From positions 22,051 through 86,050 of IMG/VR virus record IMGVR_UViG_3300037312_001875: a stretch of 64,000 bases of DNA; one strand, 5' to 3'. Within the stretch, counting starts at the first letter, position 1. Every line of letters starts with the position of its first letter. Source of the DNA: a virus. Lineage: Duplodnaviria; Caudoviricetes. Of this stretch, positions 3,322-14,042 are shown one piece after another. The translations under genes and the position numbers were made by a program. Under the pieces are notes generated by a model, which did no database searches, had not been told where the DNA came from, and worked only from the letters and a program-made list of their open reading frames with translations.

Positions 3322-4362
3322 ATGGATAAAATTTTAGTGCGCAGAGGATTAAAAGGTGATTTGCCTGACCTTGATGAAGGAGAATTCGGATATTGCACAG
3401 ACACTCGTGAAGTTTTTATTGGTACTTCTACTGCTACGAATGTCCCGGTTGGAGGAGCATCAAATTTAGATGGTCTGACTGACGTCGATACGACGACAAC
3501 TGCACCAACCAATGGTCAAGTGTTGAAATATGATTCTGCAACAAGCCTTTGGAAGCCGGGCACGGTGACAGGCGGTGGTGGAGGACCGACTTTAGTAGCT
3601 TCTTACACTCATACGAAGAACAAAGAGGTAGCTGTATCAGCTATTAACTATACAGATGGCACATTCTCTTCTACCGGTCATGGATTGGCTCTTAATGACA
3701 CAGTGACCATTATTCCTAACAAGGATATGGTTAATTCAGGTGTCAACGCTGGTAATGGTGGTAGCTATGTGGTTGGTTATTATCCTACGGGGATTTCCGC
3801 TAGGACTAAGTACTATGTAGTAAATCCACAGACTGACTCATTCCAATTATCGGCTACTTCTGGTGGAGCGGCTATTGTTCCAACGAACCCGAACTCAACC
3901 GTGGACGTAACTAAGTGGCATTTTGAAAGACAGGTGGATTCTACTATCGACTTTGGAACACTTCCAGCGGCGGGTTCGAAATTCCGAATAGTGCTTAGTG
4001 GAAAGGTGTTACGAAGCAACACAGGTCAATTAAACGTATATGCGGGTTCATTGCAATTCCCATATACCAATTTACTTGTGTCCACCAATACTATCATGTC
4101 AGGATTCGGAAATGGCGTTTGGTCTTTAGCTGGTGACATGCACACCTACCGTGAATATGACCTTAATTCTGAGGGGTACTATTACATTCGACAAAGAGGA
4201 GTAGACTACGCTACCAATACTACTTCCGCATACACGGCTACTGTTCGTGATAATACAGGTATTTGTCAAGATTACACATTCTTCAATAAACAAATAACAA
4301 AAATAACGATCATTAACATTGATGCGGCGAATGGTTTAACTGTCCAACTTTATAGCATGTAA
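3322..4362 (+). CDS. Receptor-binding/fibre protein 1 with Mtd_N-like N-terminus
   Basis: KILVRRG...LPDLDEGEFGYCTDTREVFIG; phage fibre repeat LDGLTDVD..TNGQVLKYD..W; beta-rich C-terminal domain. Confidence 0.7.
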   Translation: MDKILVRRGLKGDLPDLDEGEFGYCTDTREVFIGTSTATNVPVGGASNLDGLTDVDTTTTAPTNGQVLKYDSATSLWKPGTVTGGGGGPTLVASYTHTKNKEVAVSAINYTDGTFSSTGHGLALNDTVTIIPNKDMVNSGVNAGNGGSYVVGYYPTGISARTKYYVVNPQTDSFQLSATSGGAAIVPTNPNSTVDVTKWHFERQVDSTIDFGTLPAAGSKFRIVLSGKVLRSNTGQLNVYAGSLQFPYTNLLVSTNTIMSGFGNGVWSLAGDMHTYREYDLNSEGYYYIRQRGVDYATNTTSAYTATVRDNTGICQDYTFFNKQITKITIINIDAANGLTVQLYSM

Positions 4363-8951: not shown

Positions 8952-9033
8952 GTTGAGCTGTTACATCTAGGGTACTCCAATTATAGCATGAATTCGAGAT
9001 AAAAAGTATTGAAAGATTAAGATTTGATTAAAA

Positions 9034-9070
9034 TTGTAAATACAAGGTGACAACTGATACAATAGTCCTA
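9034..9070 (+). promoter_or_regulatory. SigA-like promoter TTGTAA-18-TACAAT (extended -10) with AGTCCTA half-operator
   Basis: TTGTAA 9034-9039, TG-A-TACAAT 9055-9063, AGTCCTA 9064-9070. Confidence 0.55.
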
Positions 9071-9103
9071 GTTTATTTTTATTAAAATGGAGGTTATCAA
9101 TCT

Positions 9104-9376
9104 ATGAAAAATACCGTCACTCAAGAGCAAATTGACCGCCTGATCGAGGATGCGAAAGTCGATATACAAACCGCTTTTGGAAAAACCACGATTGTTTCGG
9201 TTCAATTGAAGAATGGATTTGTGTTTGTGGAGTCCAGCTCCTGCGTAGATCCTGCCAATTACAACGAGTCCATGGGCGCAGAGATTTGTATGAACCGCAT
9301 CAAAAACAAGCTTTGGGAACTGGAAGGCTATCTGCTCCAAGAAACCATTTATCGTAATTCTTTAATCGAACAATAA
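9104..9376 (+). CDS. Phage Gp49/Gp66-family protein
   Basis: TTIVSVQLKNGFVFVESSSCVDPANYNESMG...KNKLWELEGYLLQE is the characteristic family pattern. Confidence 0.8.
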   Translation: MKNTVTQEQIDRLIEDAKVDIQTAFGKTTIVSVQLKNGFVFVESSSCVDPANYNESMGAEICMNRIKNKLWELEGYLLQETIYRNSLIEQ

Positions 9377-9381
9377 AGGCA

Positions 9382-9413
9382 AAAAGGTCCCGTGTTTCCG
9401 CACGGGACCTTTT
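9382..9413 (+). terminator. Rho-independent terminator
   Basis: AAAAGGTCCCGTG / CACGGGACCTTTT. Confidence 0.8.
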
Positions 9414-9541
9414 CTAAAGACAACTAGATAGCATAGTACGATTATACTACGTAATCGCGTCTTTTTGAATTGTCCCTTCGTTTTTATTTTCCTTTTGGCT
9501 ATAATAAAGCTATTCGCTTTTATTTGAAAGGAGAAATAAAA

Positions 9542-9913
9542 TTGTTACGGCTGTTTAAAGAAAAACGGTATCGTCCTCTAGGCATTCTCTTACTGTGCCT
9601 GTTTGCTTATTTGATTGTAGCTGCAGTTGGCATGATTTCCATTTTCACAGGGCAATACGGCACGATGAAACCGATTATGGAATGGTTCGGCATGATTGTA
9701 AATTTGTATTGCCTTGTTTTCTGCATTTTAAACTGGAGGATAGCTCACAAAGAATCCATCCAGAGAGAACAAGAATGGCAAAAGCGTTACAGTGAATTAG
9801 GAATCAAATATGAGCCGCAAATCGATTACCTGAAATCCCGCCGTCAGTACGGATGGATGTGGACGCTTGCGATTGCAGTCAATTTGTTTTGTTTTAGCAC
9901 TTACTTTTGGTAA
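9542..9913 (+). CDS. Small membrane protein (about 3 TM segments)
   Basis: AAAGGAG RBS before TTG at 9542; three hydrophobic stretches; terminator-like hairpin at 9909-9946. Confidence 0.6.
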   Translation: MLRLFKEKRYRPLGILLLCLFAYLIVAAVGMISIFTGQYGTMKPIMEWFGMIVNLYCLVFCILNWRIAHKESIQREQEWQKRYSELGIKYEPQIDYLKSRRQYGWMWTLAIAVNLFCFSTYFW

Positions 9914-9944
9914 GCAGTTAGCCTTATGGCTGGCTTACCATTTT

Positions 9945-11171
9945 TTATCCTATCTGTTCTAACATCTTATCTATTTCAGCTTTCTTTTCCTCAATTTTTT
10001 CTTTTTCCTCTATCAGTTTATTAACTGTTTCAAGATTTTGCGGAAAAGATTTGTTTGCAGGATGTTTACGCATTAAAGATTTCAGGCGCTCTTGCTGTCT
10101 TTTTAATTCAGATAACGTCAATTCCTCGAAATTCTTCGTTTCAGGGCTATCCTGTTTTATTTCTTCTTTATCAAACCAATCTGGAAGCAATTCAGTTCGT
10201 ATAGGTTTACCATTCCTCTTTTGCTTATCAGGAATATTGTTAAACTCTGTACGATTCCTCTTTAGCCAATTATTCATAACAGCTCCGAAGGTTTTAGGTC
10301 TTTCCGACATCTGATCCAATAAGCAAGCTAACACATAATCGTATTCAGACACCCAGTACGTTTCCTTAACGGCATTAAAATGTTTTTCAATGTCTGACAC
10401 ATTAATTTTATATTGAGTTAATCTATCTATCCTATCCAGCAATGTATCCTTCACTACATCATTTAAAGAAGAATTATTGATTGATAGATTAATAAAATTA
10501 TTTGATTCGTTATTAAAAGAATTTGAAACATTATTAGATATATTTGATACATTATTGGGTTTTGAATTTGAAACGGTGACCGTTTTATTTTTGAAACCCT
10601 CTACCGTTTTATTTTTGAAACCCTCTACCGTTTTATTTTTGAAACGGTACTTCTTATTAGACTTAACCAATTTAAGTTCTTTCTTTTTAGGTTCGACTGC
10701 ATCGACTTTGCGTGGTCTTCCCCCTGTTTTACCCAGCTCCTTAGAAACAGATTCATAATCTTGATCCCAATCCCTAAGTTTTTCTAATCCCTGGTATTTC
10801 CTGACGATTTCATGAAACGGATATTCATAAACAATGATATTTTTAGGCTTCGTTGTTTTCCGTTCGCTTTCCTCGTATTCTACAATGTCAATTAATCCAA
10901 ATTCCCATAAAGGCTTGATTAATCGATAGAATTTACTTTTCGATATCTCTAATGTCTTTTTATAAATATTTTCAAAGCTCCTCGGAACACGATCATATTC
11001 TCTATCTTCGTCGTTGCGATCCACCCAAGTGTGAAACTTTAACCAGAGACAGAATGTTTCGTAACCTAATTTTTCAATCCAGTCATCACAAACTATATAA
11101 GTCAAATGGGGTAAGCTTAATTCTTCCCTTTTTTTCTTCCCTTTACCTACTGGTGAATTCTTTTTGGGCAT
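9945..11171 (-). CDS. Replication initiator protein (phage/plasmid Rep, winged-HTH N-terminus)
   Basis: GGAGG RBS before ATG 11171 (MPKKNSP); HTH-like ISKSKFYRLIKPLWEFGLI; central iteron-encoded FKNKTVEG repeats and an Asn-rich tract typical of initiators carrying their own origin. Confidence 0.75.
   Translation of the reverse strand: MPKKNSPVGKGKKKREELSLPHLTYIVCDDWIEKLGYETFCLWLKFHTWVDRNDEDREYDRVPRSFENIYKKTLEISKSKFYRLIKPLWEFGLIDIVEYEESERKTTKPKNIIVYEYPFHEIVRKYQGLEKLRDWDQDYESVSKELGKTGGRPRKVDAVEPKKKELKLVKSNKKYRFKNKTVEGFKNKTVEGFKNKTVTVSNSKPNNVSNISNNVSNSFNNESNNFINLSINNSSLNDVVKDTLLDRIDRLTQYKINVSDIEKHFNAVKETYWVSEYDYVLACLLDQMSERPKTFGAVMNNWLKRNRTEFNNIPDKQKRNGKPIRTELLPDWFDKEEIKQDSPETKNFEELTLSELKRQQERLKSLMRKHPANKSFPQNLETVNKLIEEKEKIEEKKAEIDKMLEQIG
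10567..10648. repeat. Iterons inside rep (putative replication origin)
   Basis: 24-bp ACCGTTTTATTTTTGAAACCCTCT at 10579-10602 and 10603-10626, a partial third copy at 10627-10645, AAACGGT/ACCGTTT inverted ends, and an AT-rich stretch at about 10440-10560. Confidence 0.8.
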
Positions 11172-11232
11172 AATAAAAACCTCCGATTTCCACCCGCCCA
11201 AAAAAAGACAATAGGAAAATAGAGGTTTGTTC

Positions 11233-11261
11233 TTCACATTTTTAAAATCGTATGTTAAAAT
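11233..11261 (+). promoter_or_regulatory. SigA promoter TTCACA-17-TAAAAT with TG extension, firing antisense into the region upstream of rep
   Basis: TTCACA 11233-11238, TG 11253-11254, TAAAAT 11256-11261. Confidence 0.7.
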
Positions 11262-11267
11262 TGATTT

Positions 11268-11368
11268 AACATACATGAAGAAACAAACCCCGTCTCTGCA
11301 AGTTTTTTTCGAAATCGTGGCCTAGGAAACCTCATTCGAATAAAACTTTTATGGCGGGTTTTTTTTAT
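11268..11368 (+). ncRNA. Predicted ~100-nt antisense copy-control RNA
   Basis: Follows the promoter; forms a long hairpin (11301-11313 pairs with 11335-11347 at 12/13; 11285-11294 with 11353-11361) ending in a U-tract; no ORF. Confidence 0.55.
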
Positions 11369-11387
11369 TTTATTTACAATTACATAG

Positions 11388-11396
11388 TTATCCACA
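11388..11396 (+). promoter_or_regulatory. DnaA box
   Basis: Perfect TTATCCACA. Confidence 0.7.
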
Positions 11397-11485
11397 ATAC
11401 GACAATTACAGACAACGTTTTCTATTTTTATATTTGTCTGTCTATTTCTTAACTACTATTATACAAGCATAATATGAAATAATAA

Positions 11486-11501
11486 TAGGACTAGAATCCT
11501 A
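11486..11501. promoter_or_regulatory. TAGG-N8-CCTA operator upstream of rep
   Basis: TAGGACTAGAATCCTA; a minus-strand TATAAT lies at 11458-11463. Confidence 0.6.
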
Positions 11502-11587
11502 TCTTTTGAACAACCTTTCGACAAAGATGTGTCGAACATGTATGTAACACACAAAAAAGTCGTCCATTTGCATGCACGACAATACCG

Positions 11588-11627
11588 TTATCCACAGATA
11601 TAAATAACTAAATAAAAGTTATCCACA
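11588..11627 (+). promoter_or_regulatory. Two DnaA boxes (11588-11596, 11619-11627)
   Basis: Two perfect TTATCCACA copies in the same orientation. Confidence 0.7.
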
Positions 11628-11699
11628 TCTGGATATCAGCTCGTCGTTAAATCCATGTTACAACAATAAGAAAATATTGGCAAGACCTAAAAATAAACC

Positions 11700-11728
11700 T
11701 TGCACAAAATATGAAGCTCTGTTAGTCT
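11700..11728 (+). promoter_or_regulatory. SigA-like promoter TTGCAC-17-TAGTCT with TG extension
   Basis: TTGCAC 11700-11705, TG 11720-11721, TAGTCT 11723-11728. Confidence 0.5.
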
Positions 11729-11734
11729 AATCTT

Positions 11735-11820
11735 GTGCCGATGGCACATAAATTAATAATATATCTGTCTCGTCGTTGAGCAGGGAAAAACACCGGAGCC
11801 ATAGGCCCCGGTGTTTTTCT
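11735..11820 (+). ncRNA. Predicted ~85-nt small RNA
   Basis: Between the promoter and a strong terminator; three hairpins (GTGCC/GGCAC, CTGTCTC/GAGCAG, terminator); no ORF. Confidence 0.4.
11785..11819. terminator. Bidirectional terminator
   Basis: GAAAAACACCGG ... CCGGTGTTTTTC. Confidence 0.85.
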
Positions 11821-11822
11821 GT

Positions 11823-12323
11823 TTACAATTGTTTTACATCATTCTGGTGGGTAATGTAATTAAAGACTTCATCGTCAGTTGTTCCAATAAATCCATCAAG
11901 ATTGATGGGTTCTCCCTCTTTATCATACCGACAAACAATCCAGTTTTTATCTCCATCCCAATTGTAAGTCGCTAAGTACCATCCTTCATCCTTCGTGCTG
12001 ATCTCACAAGCAGAATTCATACCACCAGTTTGAGCCATAGCCGCATCGATTCCAGCTTCTTTAAAGCGAAGCATTAAATTATGTTCGGCTGCTACGCAAT
12101 CATCTACTTGAATCTTTTGACTGCAATCGTCACAGAGAGTAACTTGATAACCTTTTGCCAATTCTTTTTCAGTAGTGACTTTATTCCACTCTTCTTCGCT
12201 TAATGTCTCATCACAAAATTTACCTGTTTTATAATCATAACCTCTGTTTTTGAATGTTGGTCCATGGCATTCATAACAAACTACTTTTGCCCATGGAGTC
12301 CAAATACCTGGTTTAATGTTCAT
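11823..12323 (-). CDS. Hypothetical phage protein with two CxxC pairs (possible Zn-binding)
   Basis: CYEC and CDDC; RBS overlaps the stop of the upstream gene. Confidence 0.7.
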   Translation of the reverse strand: MNIKPGIWTPWAKVVCYECHGPTFKNRGYDYKTGKFCDETLSEEEWNKVTTEKELAKGYQVTLCDDCSQKIQVDDCVAAEHNLMLRFKEAGIDAAMAQTGGMNSACEISTKDEGWYLATYNWDGDKNWIVCRYDKEGEPINLDGFIGTTDDEVFNYITHQNDVKQL

Positions 12324-12329
12324 TTTCTA

Positions 12330-12938
12330 TTACCTCTTTGCTAGTGACTTTAATTTTTCTTCGGCTTCTTTTCGAGTAGGAAAAACTCTTGATAAGCTTG
12401 GTGCCTTTAATGTGAAATATTCACCTTTGGCATCATGACCTACAATATAAGCGTGGTAGTTTGTTTTTGTTCCTTTGCCGAAAACTACAGGAATAATTTC
12501 TCCGCTATTTACAAAGTAACCAGTATCTCCTTCGTACCATTCATCCATTCCTTTTAATTGTTTACCTTCGATGAAGTCATCGACTGGAGTTGAAGGATCT
12601 GCTTTTTGATAAAAACCAATAGTTCCTTGATAATTTCTGTGCCCTTGAACGACTGCGTGAATTGGGTACTTGTTTCCAGGTTTGTAAGCTGTAATGATTG
12701 CCTTTTCTCCTTTTTCGTTTAGGATTAGGCGACCAGGTTTAATATCCTCAGCTGAAAGAGCGGTTCCATTAACGATGGATGTACGATGTTTTGGGATTTC
12801 TACCTTCACCATCTTTTGAAATTCCTTTTTGGCTAACTCAACAAGTTCTTGATCCGAAATTCCCTTAACGACGGATAAATTAATGGTGACTGGATCTACG
12901 TGGAAAATGACTGATTTGTTTTCTTTTTTTGCTGGCAT
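12330..12938 (-). CDS. Hypothetical phage early protein
   Basis: 202 aa, AAAGGAG RBS, preceded by the repeated leader cassette. Confidence 0.7.
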   Translation of the reverse strand: MPAKKENKSVIFHVDPVTINLSVVKGISDQELVELAKKEFQKMVKVEIPKHRTSIVNGTALSAEDIKPGRLILNEKGEKAIITAYKPGNKYPIHAVVQGHRNYQGTIGFYQKADPSTPVDDFIEGKQLKGMDEWYEGDTGYFVNSGEIIPVVFGKGTKTNYHAYIVGHDAKGEYFTLKAPSLSRVFPTRKEAEEKLKSLAKR

Positions 12939-12954
12939 AATAAAACATCTCCTT

Positions 12955-13022
12955 TAATAATTATGAAAATAGAAAAAGAGACAATTTTCTAATCGTCTCC
13001 TTTGCTACTTTTCTTATAACAC
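12955..13022 (-). repeat. Early-gene leader cassette, copy 1
   Basis: Minus strand: GTGTTATAAGAA..AAAGGAGAC-loop-GTCTCTTT-TTCTATTTTCATAATTA-RBS. Confidence 0.8.
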
Positions 13023-13225
13023 TACGCCCTTTCGGGCGCATATTTTAGTTTTGGTCTGCCATCTGTATAGCTCATGCTTTCTACACGTCCTCCAATGGTT
13101 TCTAAATAAGTTACCAATTTATCTAAGAAATGAAGTAGAGTTTCTTGATTTTCGATTTTACCTTCGTGGGCCATTTCGCAATAAAGGTTATCTGCCTGTG
13201 TTGTTAATTCATCTAATAAATTCAT
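13022..13225 (-). CDS. Hypothetical phage protein
   Basis: 67 aa with AGGAGG RBS. Confidence 0.65.
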   Translation of the reverse strand: MNLLDELTTQADNLYCEMAHEGKIENQETLLHFLDKLVTYLETIGGRVESMSYTDGRPKLKYAPERA

Positions 13226-13280
13226 AATTACATCCTCCTATAATTTCATAATTACAAAACTAGAAAATTAATAAATTATG

Positions 13281-13481
13281 TCATCCGAATTTCTTCTGTA
13301 CCAAATAACGGCCATCTCCAAAATCCTTTTCTATTTCACAAGGGAGTACAATAATTTGTTTTCCTTTGAACTTATATTGTTCAGGATTATATCCAATGGC
13401 TGGGCGAACATCCATAAATGCATTTCGTTCTACTGGGGTGAATAATAATACTCCATTGTAATTTTTATCTGTGATTTTCAT
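13281..13481 (-). CDS. Hypothetical phage protein
   Basis: GGAGG RBS before ATG 13481 (MKITDKN). Confidence 0.65.
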   Translation of the reverse strand: MKITDKNYNGVLLFTPVERNAFMDVRPAIGYNPEQYKFKGKQIIVLPCEIEKDFGDGRYLVQKKFG

Positions 13482-13602
13482 AATAAGCAACCTCCATATC
13501 CATTATTGTTATCAATGACCGGGGGTCCGTGGAATAGGGAGTGCGTGCCATGATTTCGCACGCATCCCCATCACATACCGACAACAACACAAGTTCACTC
13601 AT
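13465..13602 (-). CDS. Small hypothetical protein (45 aa, absent from ORF track)
   Basis: MSELVLLSVCDGDACEIMARTPY...; AAGGGGAG RBS; overlaps both neighbours. Confidence 0.5.
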   Translation of the reverse strand: MSELVLLSVCDGDACEIMARTPYSTDPRSLITIMDMEVAYYENHR

Positions 13603-13768
13603 GTGATCTAGGCTCTCCCCTTAAATATCCTTTTGCTAGGGCAATGAGTAAATCAATTTCTTCTAATTTAATGCGACCACGCTTATAGTTGATTATGATT
13701 TTATCGAGTTCTGAGTTTAATTTTTCTCGAGCAATCTCCTGTTTAGTTTTAACAACTGTTTCGTTCAT
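13595..13768 (-). CDS. Small hypothetical protein (57 aa, absent from ORF track)
   Basis: MNETVVKTKQEIAREKLNSELDK...; AAGGAGG RBS; ATGA overlap with the upstream stop. Confidence 0.6.
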   Translation of the reverse strand: MNETVVKTKQEIAREKLNSELDKIIINYKRGRIKLEEIDLLIALAKGYLRGEPRSHE

Positions 13769-13971
13769 GCGTAAACCCTCCTTCTATTTTTGACTGGAAT
13801 CAATGATGCACGAATGGATTCTCGTACAGCTGATTCTTTTACAACACGGGGACCATCATAGTAATTACCGATAAATTGGCCATTCACATAACGGTAATGA
13901 CGGAATCCAGAATTCTTTCCGCTTTTCATTCCTTGAATGTAGCGATCGACGATATTATCTCTAATACTCAT
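13765..13971 (-). CDS. Hypothetical phage protein
   Basis: 68 aa, AAGGGAG RBS, preceded by a leader cassette variant. Confidence 0.6.
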   Translation of the reverse strand: MSIRDNIVDRYIQGMKSGKNSGFRHYRYVNGQFIGNYYDGPRVVKESAVRESIRASLIPVKNRRRVYA

Positions 13972-13993
13972 TTAAAGCACTCCCTTTGTAATT

Positions 13994-14042
13994 TTGTAAT
14001 TATGAAAATAGAAAAAGAGGTGATTATGCAATCTCCTCTTTG
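13994..14042 (-). repeat. Early-gene leader cassette, variant copy
   Basis: Different hairpin (AAAGAGGAGATT/AATCACCTCTTT) but the same TTTTCTATTTTCATAATTACAA tail. Confidence 0.7.

Follow-up and report, generated by a model that had tools for sequence, protein, structure and literature searches.

A probable antisense-RNA-driven switch in the rep leader of a Bacillus cereus-group phage-plasmid

Described leader switches and the rep leader of the window

Copy control sets the burden, the stability and the incompatibility of a plasmid. Control of the staphylococcal RepA_N plasmids pSK41 and pSK1 by the antisense RNA RNAI is said to have been described by Kwong et al. in 2006 and 2008, and Novick et al. 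reportedly described in 1989 a countertranscript-driven attenuator in pT181. Here, we analyze the leader of rep, a replication initiator gene, in a stretch of 64,000 nucleotides (nt) that is part of a 116-kb virus record (IMGVR_UViG_3300037312_001875); this whole stretch is called the window below. The leader probably carries an ON/OFF switch that is driven by an antisense RNA and limits rep expression, that is, copy control of the countertranscript type.

In pSK41, pSK1 and pSA564, which are RepA_N plasmids of Staphylococcus, the switch logic of three elements, GG-UP, CC-MID and GG-DW, has been proven by mutation (PMC8129170; PMC5703833). Guimaraes et al. (2021) described control by RNA1 in pSA564 (PMC8129170). 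In plasmids of this type the ON stem contains the RNA1 promoter, the OFF stem is a trap for the ribosome-binding site (RBS) and a putative terminator, and the terminator hairpin of pSA564 RNA1 carries a CGCCAA kissing loop (PMC8129170). According to a review of 2017, pSK41-like RNA control is apparently absent in RepA_N plasmids outside staphylococci (PMC5703833), and in 2021 it was speculated that such control might be universal for the RepA_N family (PMC8129170).

The elements of the window leader, named A to E in the 5′ to 3′ order of the rep mRNA, are listed here together with the gene that they precede, its Shine-Dalgarno sequence (SD) and the transcript predicted on the opposite strand:

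11359-11353, minus strand: A, ACCCGCC; 5′ arm of the base of the target hairpin and ON partner of D
Between A and B, minus strand: apical part of the target hairpin, containing the motif of the next line
11327..11334, minus strand: UGAGGUUU, proposed earlier as the upstream element of the switch; window-specific, in the apical part of the target hairpin, not supported as a switch partner
11291-11276, minus strand: B, GGGGUUUGUUUCUUCA; pre-emptor or anti-anti-SD and 3′ basal arm of the target hairpin, pairing with A or C
Between B and C, minus strand: complement of the antisense promoter, carrying a small palindrome
11236-11214, minus strand: C, UGAAGAACAAACCUCUAUUUUCC; anti-SD switch arm, pairing with B (ON) or E (OFF)
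11198-11192, minus strand: D, GGCGGGU; ON partner of A, in the loop region of the OFF hairpin
11191-11177, minus strand: E, GGAAAUCGGAGGUUU; 3′ arm of the OFF hairpin, holding the SD GGAGG (11184-11180)
11176-11169, minus strand: U-rich tract after E, UUAUU then AUG, with a U-rich stretch at 11179-11172
9945..11171, minus strand: rep, 408 amino acids, ATG at 11171 (11171-11169), SD GGAGG at 11184-11180
11233..11261, plus strand: antisense promoter, TTCACA, 17 nt, TGtTAAAAT; 10/12 matches plus the TG of an extended -10
11268..~11366, plus strand: predicted antisense RNA of ~97 nt, with one long hairpin between a 5′ tail and a U-run; both ends predicted

These elements are likely to form a four-helix switch in the rep mRNA: A:D and B:C would leave the SD free in the ON state, and A:B and C:E, with the U-run behind them, would make up the OFF state. 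In the ON state the minus-strand rep mRNA would start upstream of ~11360, and its first ~90 nt would fold as the target hairpin from A to B. Once C emerges, B would quit A for the much stronger B:C helix around the antisense promoter region and A would clamp onto D, so that the SD is free and Rep is made. In the OFF state a constitutive plus-strand promoter would yield the ~97-nt antisense RNA, which would bind the nascent leader and sequester A and B. C would then pair with E, burying the SD in a hairpin of -22.6 kcal/mol followed by the U-run; translation would be blocked, and transcription would probably also be terminated just before the AUG. Because the level of the antisense RNA would follow gene dosage, Rep synthesis would fall as copy number rises. 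We infer that both RNAs are produced and bind each other, and that the OFF hairpin would act on translation, on transcription or on both.

The closest precedent of this cassette is the pSK41/pSA564 system, and not the IncI/B plasmids, which a previous sequence-only reading of the window had cited along with pT181 and Inc18. As in pSK41, pSK1 and pSA564, there is a 5′ untranslated region of ~200 nt with an internal countertranscript promoter. As in pSK41 and pSA564, a central CC element can pair with an upstream GG (ON) or with the GG of the SD (OFF), the ON stem encloses the antisense promoter, the OFF stem traps the RBS with a poly-U behind it (in all 45 leaders collected below), and the antisense terminator hairpin would double as the kissing hairpin. 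The loops of relatives of the window, GGCCAA, GACCAA or CGCCAA, resemble the CGCCAA of pSA564 RNA1, whereas the window has no such motif. Unlike the staphylococcal systems, this one belongs to a phage-plasmid of the Bacillus cereus group; the window Rep has no RepA_N Pfam match, the antisense RNA is one long hairpin instead of two stem-loops, and an additional clamp, A:D, closes the ON fold into a three-way junction. The likeness to the staphylococcal plasmids is one of architecture.

Other antisense-controlled plasmids share single features. In pT181 as in the window, a pre-emptor competes for the 5′ arm of an RBS-containing, terminator-like stem directly 5′ of the start codon, and this arm is freed by antisense RNA (PMC5703833); however, pT181, which is small, replicates as a rolling circle and has a Rep_trans initiator, whereas the window initiator is of a theta-type winged-helix kind. 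The Inc18 plasmids pIP501 and pAMbeta1 are Gram-positive theta plasmids in which the antisense RNAIII induces a terminator in a long rep leader (PMC5703833). The Inc18 attenuator lies upstream of the SD and is accompanied by the CopR repressor, whereas in the window the SD is inside the OFF stem. The open reading frames upstream of the leader had no informative Pfam match, and no search aimed at a Cop repressor was made.

In IncI-alpha, IncB and IncFII plasmids, kissing occurs via a loop of six nucleotides, with CGCCAA on the antisense RNA facing UUGGCG on the target. IncK primers show CCCGCCAAAG (PMC10724649). In relatives of the window the target loop has UUGGCC, UUGGUC or UUGGCG. The IncI, IncB and IncFII systems, unlike this one, rely on a leader peptide together with an activator pseudoknot. 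Across the leaders, the frames of which differ through indels, no conserved reading frame with an SD was found, and a leader peptide was rejected.

A literature search with incomplete coverage returned no specific description of the cassette in Bacillus, which is not proof of novelty. Among the features that we did not find described are the cassette in Bacillus cereus-group phage-plasmids, the A:D clamp at the 5′ end, the single-hairpin antisense RNA, start-codon-precise shuffling with many initiators and the divergent specificity type of the window.

A conserved cassette and its covarying helices

The segment 11162-11247, which reaches from the start codon of rep as far as the -35 box, is conserved at ~82% in 31 plasmids and 7 Bacillus phages (blastn), the phages including phiS58, Waukesha92, BMBtp3, TP21-T and CUBc25. 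The rep coding DNA of these plasmids and phages could not be aligned with that of the window by blastn at the DNA level. Three relative loci that were read have the same order: ATG and SD, a CCCCGNC-like motif, TAGAGG(A/T)TTG, a -35 box, 17 nt and a TGn-10, a long hairpin, GGGG and a T-run. Scanning contigs from genomes, viruses and metagenomes for the pattern gave 43 unique leaders, made up of a phiS58-like clade I, a pBFI_5-like clade II and the window as a singleton, and two more types, L098 and L100, came from 71 genomes of the genus that were searched. The total sample is 45 leaders of five cassette sequence types. A pattern match in Marinifilum (L005) was set aside as a probable chance match, and ~35 metagenome or viral pattern matches that were dropped by the SD and terminator filter alone were probably chance matches as well.

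An Rfam scan of 9000-14000 gave only chance-level matches at E up to 5 and no antisense or countertranscript RNA family. Five further loci in several genomes of the genus (L096, L102, L103, L104 and L111) share UUUCCUAUUGUCUUUUUU with the spacer between C and D of the window, a TATAAT box lying shortly before the shared segment; when L096, L102 and L111 were scanned with Rfam at the gathering threshold, the only matches were tRNAs elsewhere in L096 and L111. Four plasmids with more distant Rep homologs (L030-L033: pHT77, Geobacillus pLW1071, Sutcliffiella and Peribacillus) have non-homologous leaders with the same theme, a countertranscript-like terminator hairpin combined either with an anti-SD hairpin or with an attenuator that precedes the SD. 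In two of the four, the Sutcliffiella and Peribacillus loci, the short terminator hairpin has an exact CGCCAA loop.

All motifs named in the sequence-only reading are present where it had placed them: AAACCTCA at 11327-11334, AGAGGTTT at 11221-11228, AAACCTCC, the SD on the minus strand, at 11177-11184, ACCCGCC at 11192-11198, GGCGGGT at 11353-11359, and the plus-strand promoter as TTCACA at 11233-11238, a 17-nt spacer and TGtTAAAAT ending at 11261. They cluster far more densely than expected by chance: of 16 occurrences of AAACCTC on both strands of the 64 kb, three fall within 160 bp here, and of seven occurrences of ACCCGCC in the window, two fall within 170 bp here in inverted orientation. 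The long-range pairing suggested for ACCCGCC and GGCGGGT is real; it is helix A:D, which covaries across cassette types. The U-run after the SD hairpin, which gives it the look of an intrinsic terminator, had been overlooked.

Covariation was measured for each helix by comparing, in every distinct haplotype, the energy of the native duplex with that of duplexes crossed between haplotypes. Native duplexes were more stable than crossed ones for A:D (-16.3 vs -13.6 kcal/mol), B:C (-18.0 vs -15.3 kcal/mol) and C:E (-17.2 vs -15.1 kcal/mol), with 0/2000 permutations as good in each case. The A:D pair reads CCCGCC/GGCGGG in the window and CCCCGGC/GCCGGGG, CCCCAGC/GCUGGGG, CCCCGAC/GUCGGGG or CCCCGACA/UGUCGGGG in other leaders, with CCCCAGUCA/UGAUUGGGG in L098 and CUACCAC/GUGGUGG in L100. 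The B:C helix runs for 15-20 bp into the -35 box with differing sequences, UCUUCA/UGAAGA (window), UUCACAU/AUGUGAA or UUACGU/ACGUAA, and with further changes between GUA/UAC, GUU/AAC and GUG/CAC. Compensation in C:E is seen between AAACC/GGUUU and AAUCC/GGAUU and between UAG/CUG and UAA/UUG. The covariation of A with D implies that the rep mRNA would start beyond ~11360. A small ACCC/GGGU hairpin in the OFF loop of clades I and II, which the window lacks, was kept out of the core model.

Which upstream element competes with the SD for C? The sequence-only reading had proposed a middle element that can pair with an upstream element or the SD, and this part stands, with conservation and compensatory changes in five types: the CCUC core has two alternative partners, a GAGG-like element upstream and the SD. 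The upstream partner was misassigned to the apical motif UGAGGUUU (11334-11327), where binding of the antisense RNA would free AAACCUCU to occlude the SD. The window does have a 7-nt complementarity, GAGGUUU/AAACCUC, and its apical:CCUC duplex (-9.0 kcal/mol) is an outlier, the best in the family. However, the position of this motif reads AAGGUU, AUAGGUU or AUGGUU in relatives. While the three helices covary in the comparison of homologous replicons that the same reading had called for, the apical region and the CCUC core do not (native -4.1 vs cross -4.95 kcal/mol, 1978/2000 permutations as good), and in every fold the window B:C helix, at -22.5 kcal/mol, wins over the apical pairing. The partner is B instead, and an apical anti-anti-SD is very improbable.

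In a MAFFT alignment, A1, the ON structure has 11 pairs changed on both sides and 75% of cells paired, a count lowered because the clades are offset by one column in B, C and A, and biased by a structure string taken from one member (L008). The ON covariation score on A1 exceeds 500/500 shuffles and all slid controls, and C:E is paired in 87% of alignment cells. Because of the register shifts in A1, the per-sequence duplex tests were relied on.

G·U pairs stabilize one strand only, and the stability of the helices therefore differs between strands. On the mRNA strand A:D is stabler in 28/33 haplotypes and C:E in 18/21, whereas the basal stem A:B is stabler on the antisense strand in 29/29 (-11.3 vs -7.3 kcal/mol). 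B:C shows no net asymmetry in the family (14 vs 13), although in the window it has -22.5 kcal/mol on the mRNA strand and -15.7 kcal/mol on the other. The A:B asymmetry fits a terminator stem of the plus-strand RNA that is deliberately weak in the mRNA, so that C captures B and D captures A. The asymmetry argues against a role at the DNA level, in which the inverted repeats would act as repressor operators, as an origin structure or as DnaA-linked elements. DnaA boxes just upstream, a B/C repeat that flanks a promoter and the even balance of B:C would suit such a role. However, the pairing is kept while the sequence changes, unlike in operator evolution, the elements always stand in a fixed relation to SD and AUG, and the G·U preference of A:D and C:E, and of B:C in the window, is for the mRNA. 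Action as DNA is thus extremely unlikely.

The predicted antisense RNA and the folds of the leader

A countertranscript promoter is predicted inside the rep leader. The 5′ part of C is the complement of its -35 box, and its -10 lies within the small palindrome (11250-11259/11265-11274), which forms the top of the ON helix. The layout of a -35 box, 17 nt and an extended -10 is kept in the five types with differing hexamers (TAAAAT, TATCAT, TACTAT and TATAAT), the extended -10 of the other types being TGcTATCAT, TGaTACTAT, TGcTATAAT and TGcTACTAT. The predicted antisense RNA is fully complementary to A through B, and its basal stem is formed by CCCGUC (11289-11294) and GGCGGG (11353-11358). The long hairpin proposed for the plus strand was recovered, as 11268-11364 folds as one long hairpin ending in a T-run, albeit with a z-score of only -1.7. 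The motif AAACCUCA assigned to its loop is in place, but lies on the 3′ side of a poorly structured apical part with no clean loop. In the alignment fold of the antisense hairpin, 5/14 consensus pairs are changed on both sides, and an apical loop with GGCCAA, GACCAA or CGCCAA occurs in four of the five types; the target loop of L100 is UUGGCC.

A real leader switch might also be driven by protein, temperature or the ribosome, with the plus-strand promoter match being fortuitous. A promoter scan of the region, which found 6 sites vs 6.0 in shuffles, and the weak z-score of the window hairpin leave room for this. The conserved promoter layout with its differing hexamers speaks against it, as do the covarying hairpin pairs and the basal stem before the T-run, which is stabler on the plus strand in every haplotype; moreover, the same layout gives the proven RNA1 in pSA564. 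A switch of this other kind is improbable.

Transcripts ending just before E were folded into their minimum-energy structures as a model of the nascent RNA. In this fold CCUC pairs with B in 43/43 leaders as well as in L098 and L100 (45/45), and A pairs with D in 42/43 leaders, including the window, and in both added types (44/45). When A through B was kept unpaired, mimicking bound antisense RNA, the SD was fully paired in 43/43 leaders and again in L098 and L100 (45/45). Of the full leaders folded free, 29/43 leave the SD open, and the ON and OFF states are nearly iso-energetic on average, with a mean difference of +0.36 kcal/mol. The B:C helix of the ON state spans 11291-11214, enclosing the -35, the -10 and the palindrome (11250-11274) of the antisense promoter.

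The OFF hairpin formed by the anti-SD and the SD (11238-11172, minus strand) has -22.6 kcal/mol with z = -4.0, and 0/200 shuffles are as stable. It sequesters the RBS and is followed by the poly-U UUUUUAUU; 5-7 U stand directly after it in 45/45 leaders. This U-run could mean that the hairpin is purely a transcription attenuator, SD occlusion being irrelevant, as the RBS-containing stem of pT181 acts mainly as a terminator (PMC5703833). However, the stem has a ~30-nt irregular interior between its arms and ends in A-U pairs, which is atypical of strong terminators, and the same design is reported to act on translation without attenuation in pSK41 (PMC5703833) and described as acting at both levels in pSA564 (PMC8129170). 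Attenuation as the sole activity is a serious alternative within the same mechanism, though unlikely.

Several points weigh against an antisense-driven switch in the window. Its full leader favors the OFF fold without antisense RNA, at -58.8 vs -53.6 kcal/mol (a difference of ~5); because the equilibrium fold favors OFF, the ON state of the window must be kinetically trapped or the energies must be off. The switch of the window appears in the nascent-RNA fold only, equilibrium folding by itself showing none. When 30 nt of coding sequence are added, a window-specific helix (11209-11196/11168-11157) encloses the SD and the AUG in both states. The antisense hairpin 11268-11364, at -21.7 kcal/mol, is matched by 15/200 shuffles (z = -1.7), and the GGCCAA/CGCCAA-type kissing motif is absent in the window apical region, which reads GUGGCCUAGGAAACCUCA. 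The antisense RNA, the rep mRNA and their start sites are predictions, and the rep promoters of the window are candidates from consensus matching. The 0/2000 counts come from permutations that ignore phylogeny, independent lineages numbering about five types plus subtypes. Finally, no close relative of the antisense segment 11268-11372 was found in plasmids, phages and the 71 genomes of the genus, where only the part from the SD to the promoter was matched, and the covariation that includes the window is therefore one between cassette types.

The window-specific helix has 12 bp, formed by UCUUUUUUUGGGC with GCCCAAAAAGA; it is not conserved in relatives.

The initiator gene and a possible exchange of cassettes

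Searches of Pfam and NCBIfam profiles gave no match for the window Rep (P0001), including RepA_N. It is an initiator of the winged-helix type, 35% identical over its full length to a Rep from a 54-kb plasmid of B. thuringiensis. Its N-terminal 140 residues match replication proteins in 60 plasmids (tblastn) from Bacillus, Geobacillus, Peribacillus and others. This N-terminal type is common to other B. cereus-group plasmids, and the C-terminal part of the window Rep is common to relatives with a DnaB_2 domain. An in-frame ATG at 11276 lengthens the reading frame to 443 amino acids, crossing the leader, and the phiS58 record (L001, 2618) annotates Rep from a similarly extended start. Because SD and ATG are conserved and the conservation is of the RNA type, these extended starts are suggested to be annotation artefacts.

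Origins and iterons inside the initiator gene are usual in RepA_N-type replicons. Within rep there are perfect 24-bp direct repeats (10579-10645, 2.8 copies), encoding repeats of FKNKTVEG, and 21-bp repeats (10481-10556, 3.6 copies, 74% matches). These are candidate iterons or a candidate origin within the gene. Upstream of the leader are the following features:

11388-11396, ~11588 and ~11619: three DnaA boxes, TTATCCACA
11367-11394, minus strand: candidate rep promoter, TGGATA, 16 nt, TAAAAT, by consensus match only
11510-11482, and TATAAT at 11468-11463, minus strand: further candidate rep promoters, by consensus match only

From the promoter at 11394-11367, the -35 of which overlaps the first DnaA box, the mRNA would begin at ~11360, immediately 5′ of A. 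In several clade I relatives two DnaA boxes in inverted orientation lie about as far upstream, and a plasmid of B. cereus NW6, unnamed2 (L002), carries a divergent Hfq gene (3523-3789) ~170 bp upstream of its rep leader.

The genes behind the cassette have at least 11 N-terminal types, including RepA_N, HTH_36, Phage_rep_O, DnaD_N and several types with no Pfam match, and most of the initiators share a related C-terminal part, some relatives being RepA_N plus DnaB_2. Five N-types occur with both cassette clades, and that of the window is found with clade I, with clade II and with the window's own cassette. Where the same cassette precedes different Reps, the leaders are 90-98% identical vs 58-64% in the first 200 nt of the gene, and therefore the junction of the cassette is the start codon. 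These comparisons show that initiator and control unit are inherited separately. Two IMG genomes each have two coexisting viral contigs, one of clade I and one of clade II (L013 with L041; L015 with L044), which is consistent with cassette type deciding compatibility.

It is quite possible, although we propose it tentatively, that the ~300-bp unit of promoter, leader and antisense gene is an exchangeable incompatibility module, joined by recombination exactly at the start codon of rep to 11 or more different initiator N-domains. Co-resident phage-plasmids and plasmids of the Bacillus cereus group would then swap control specificity, leaving initiator and origin untouched. The window would represent a specificity type, unique so far, with a different kissing region, and the A:D clamp, as a novel element of the design, would define the kinetic window in which the antisense RNA can act. 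The logic known from staphylococci is now seen in phage-plasmids and plasmids of the Bacillus cereus group, including relatives of phiS58, Waukesha92, BMBtp3 and TP21-T. A modular cassette would give a testable basis for which elements coexist in one cell, and the cassette types would serve as natural specificity variants for studies of antisense kinetics.

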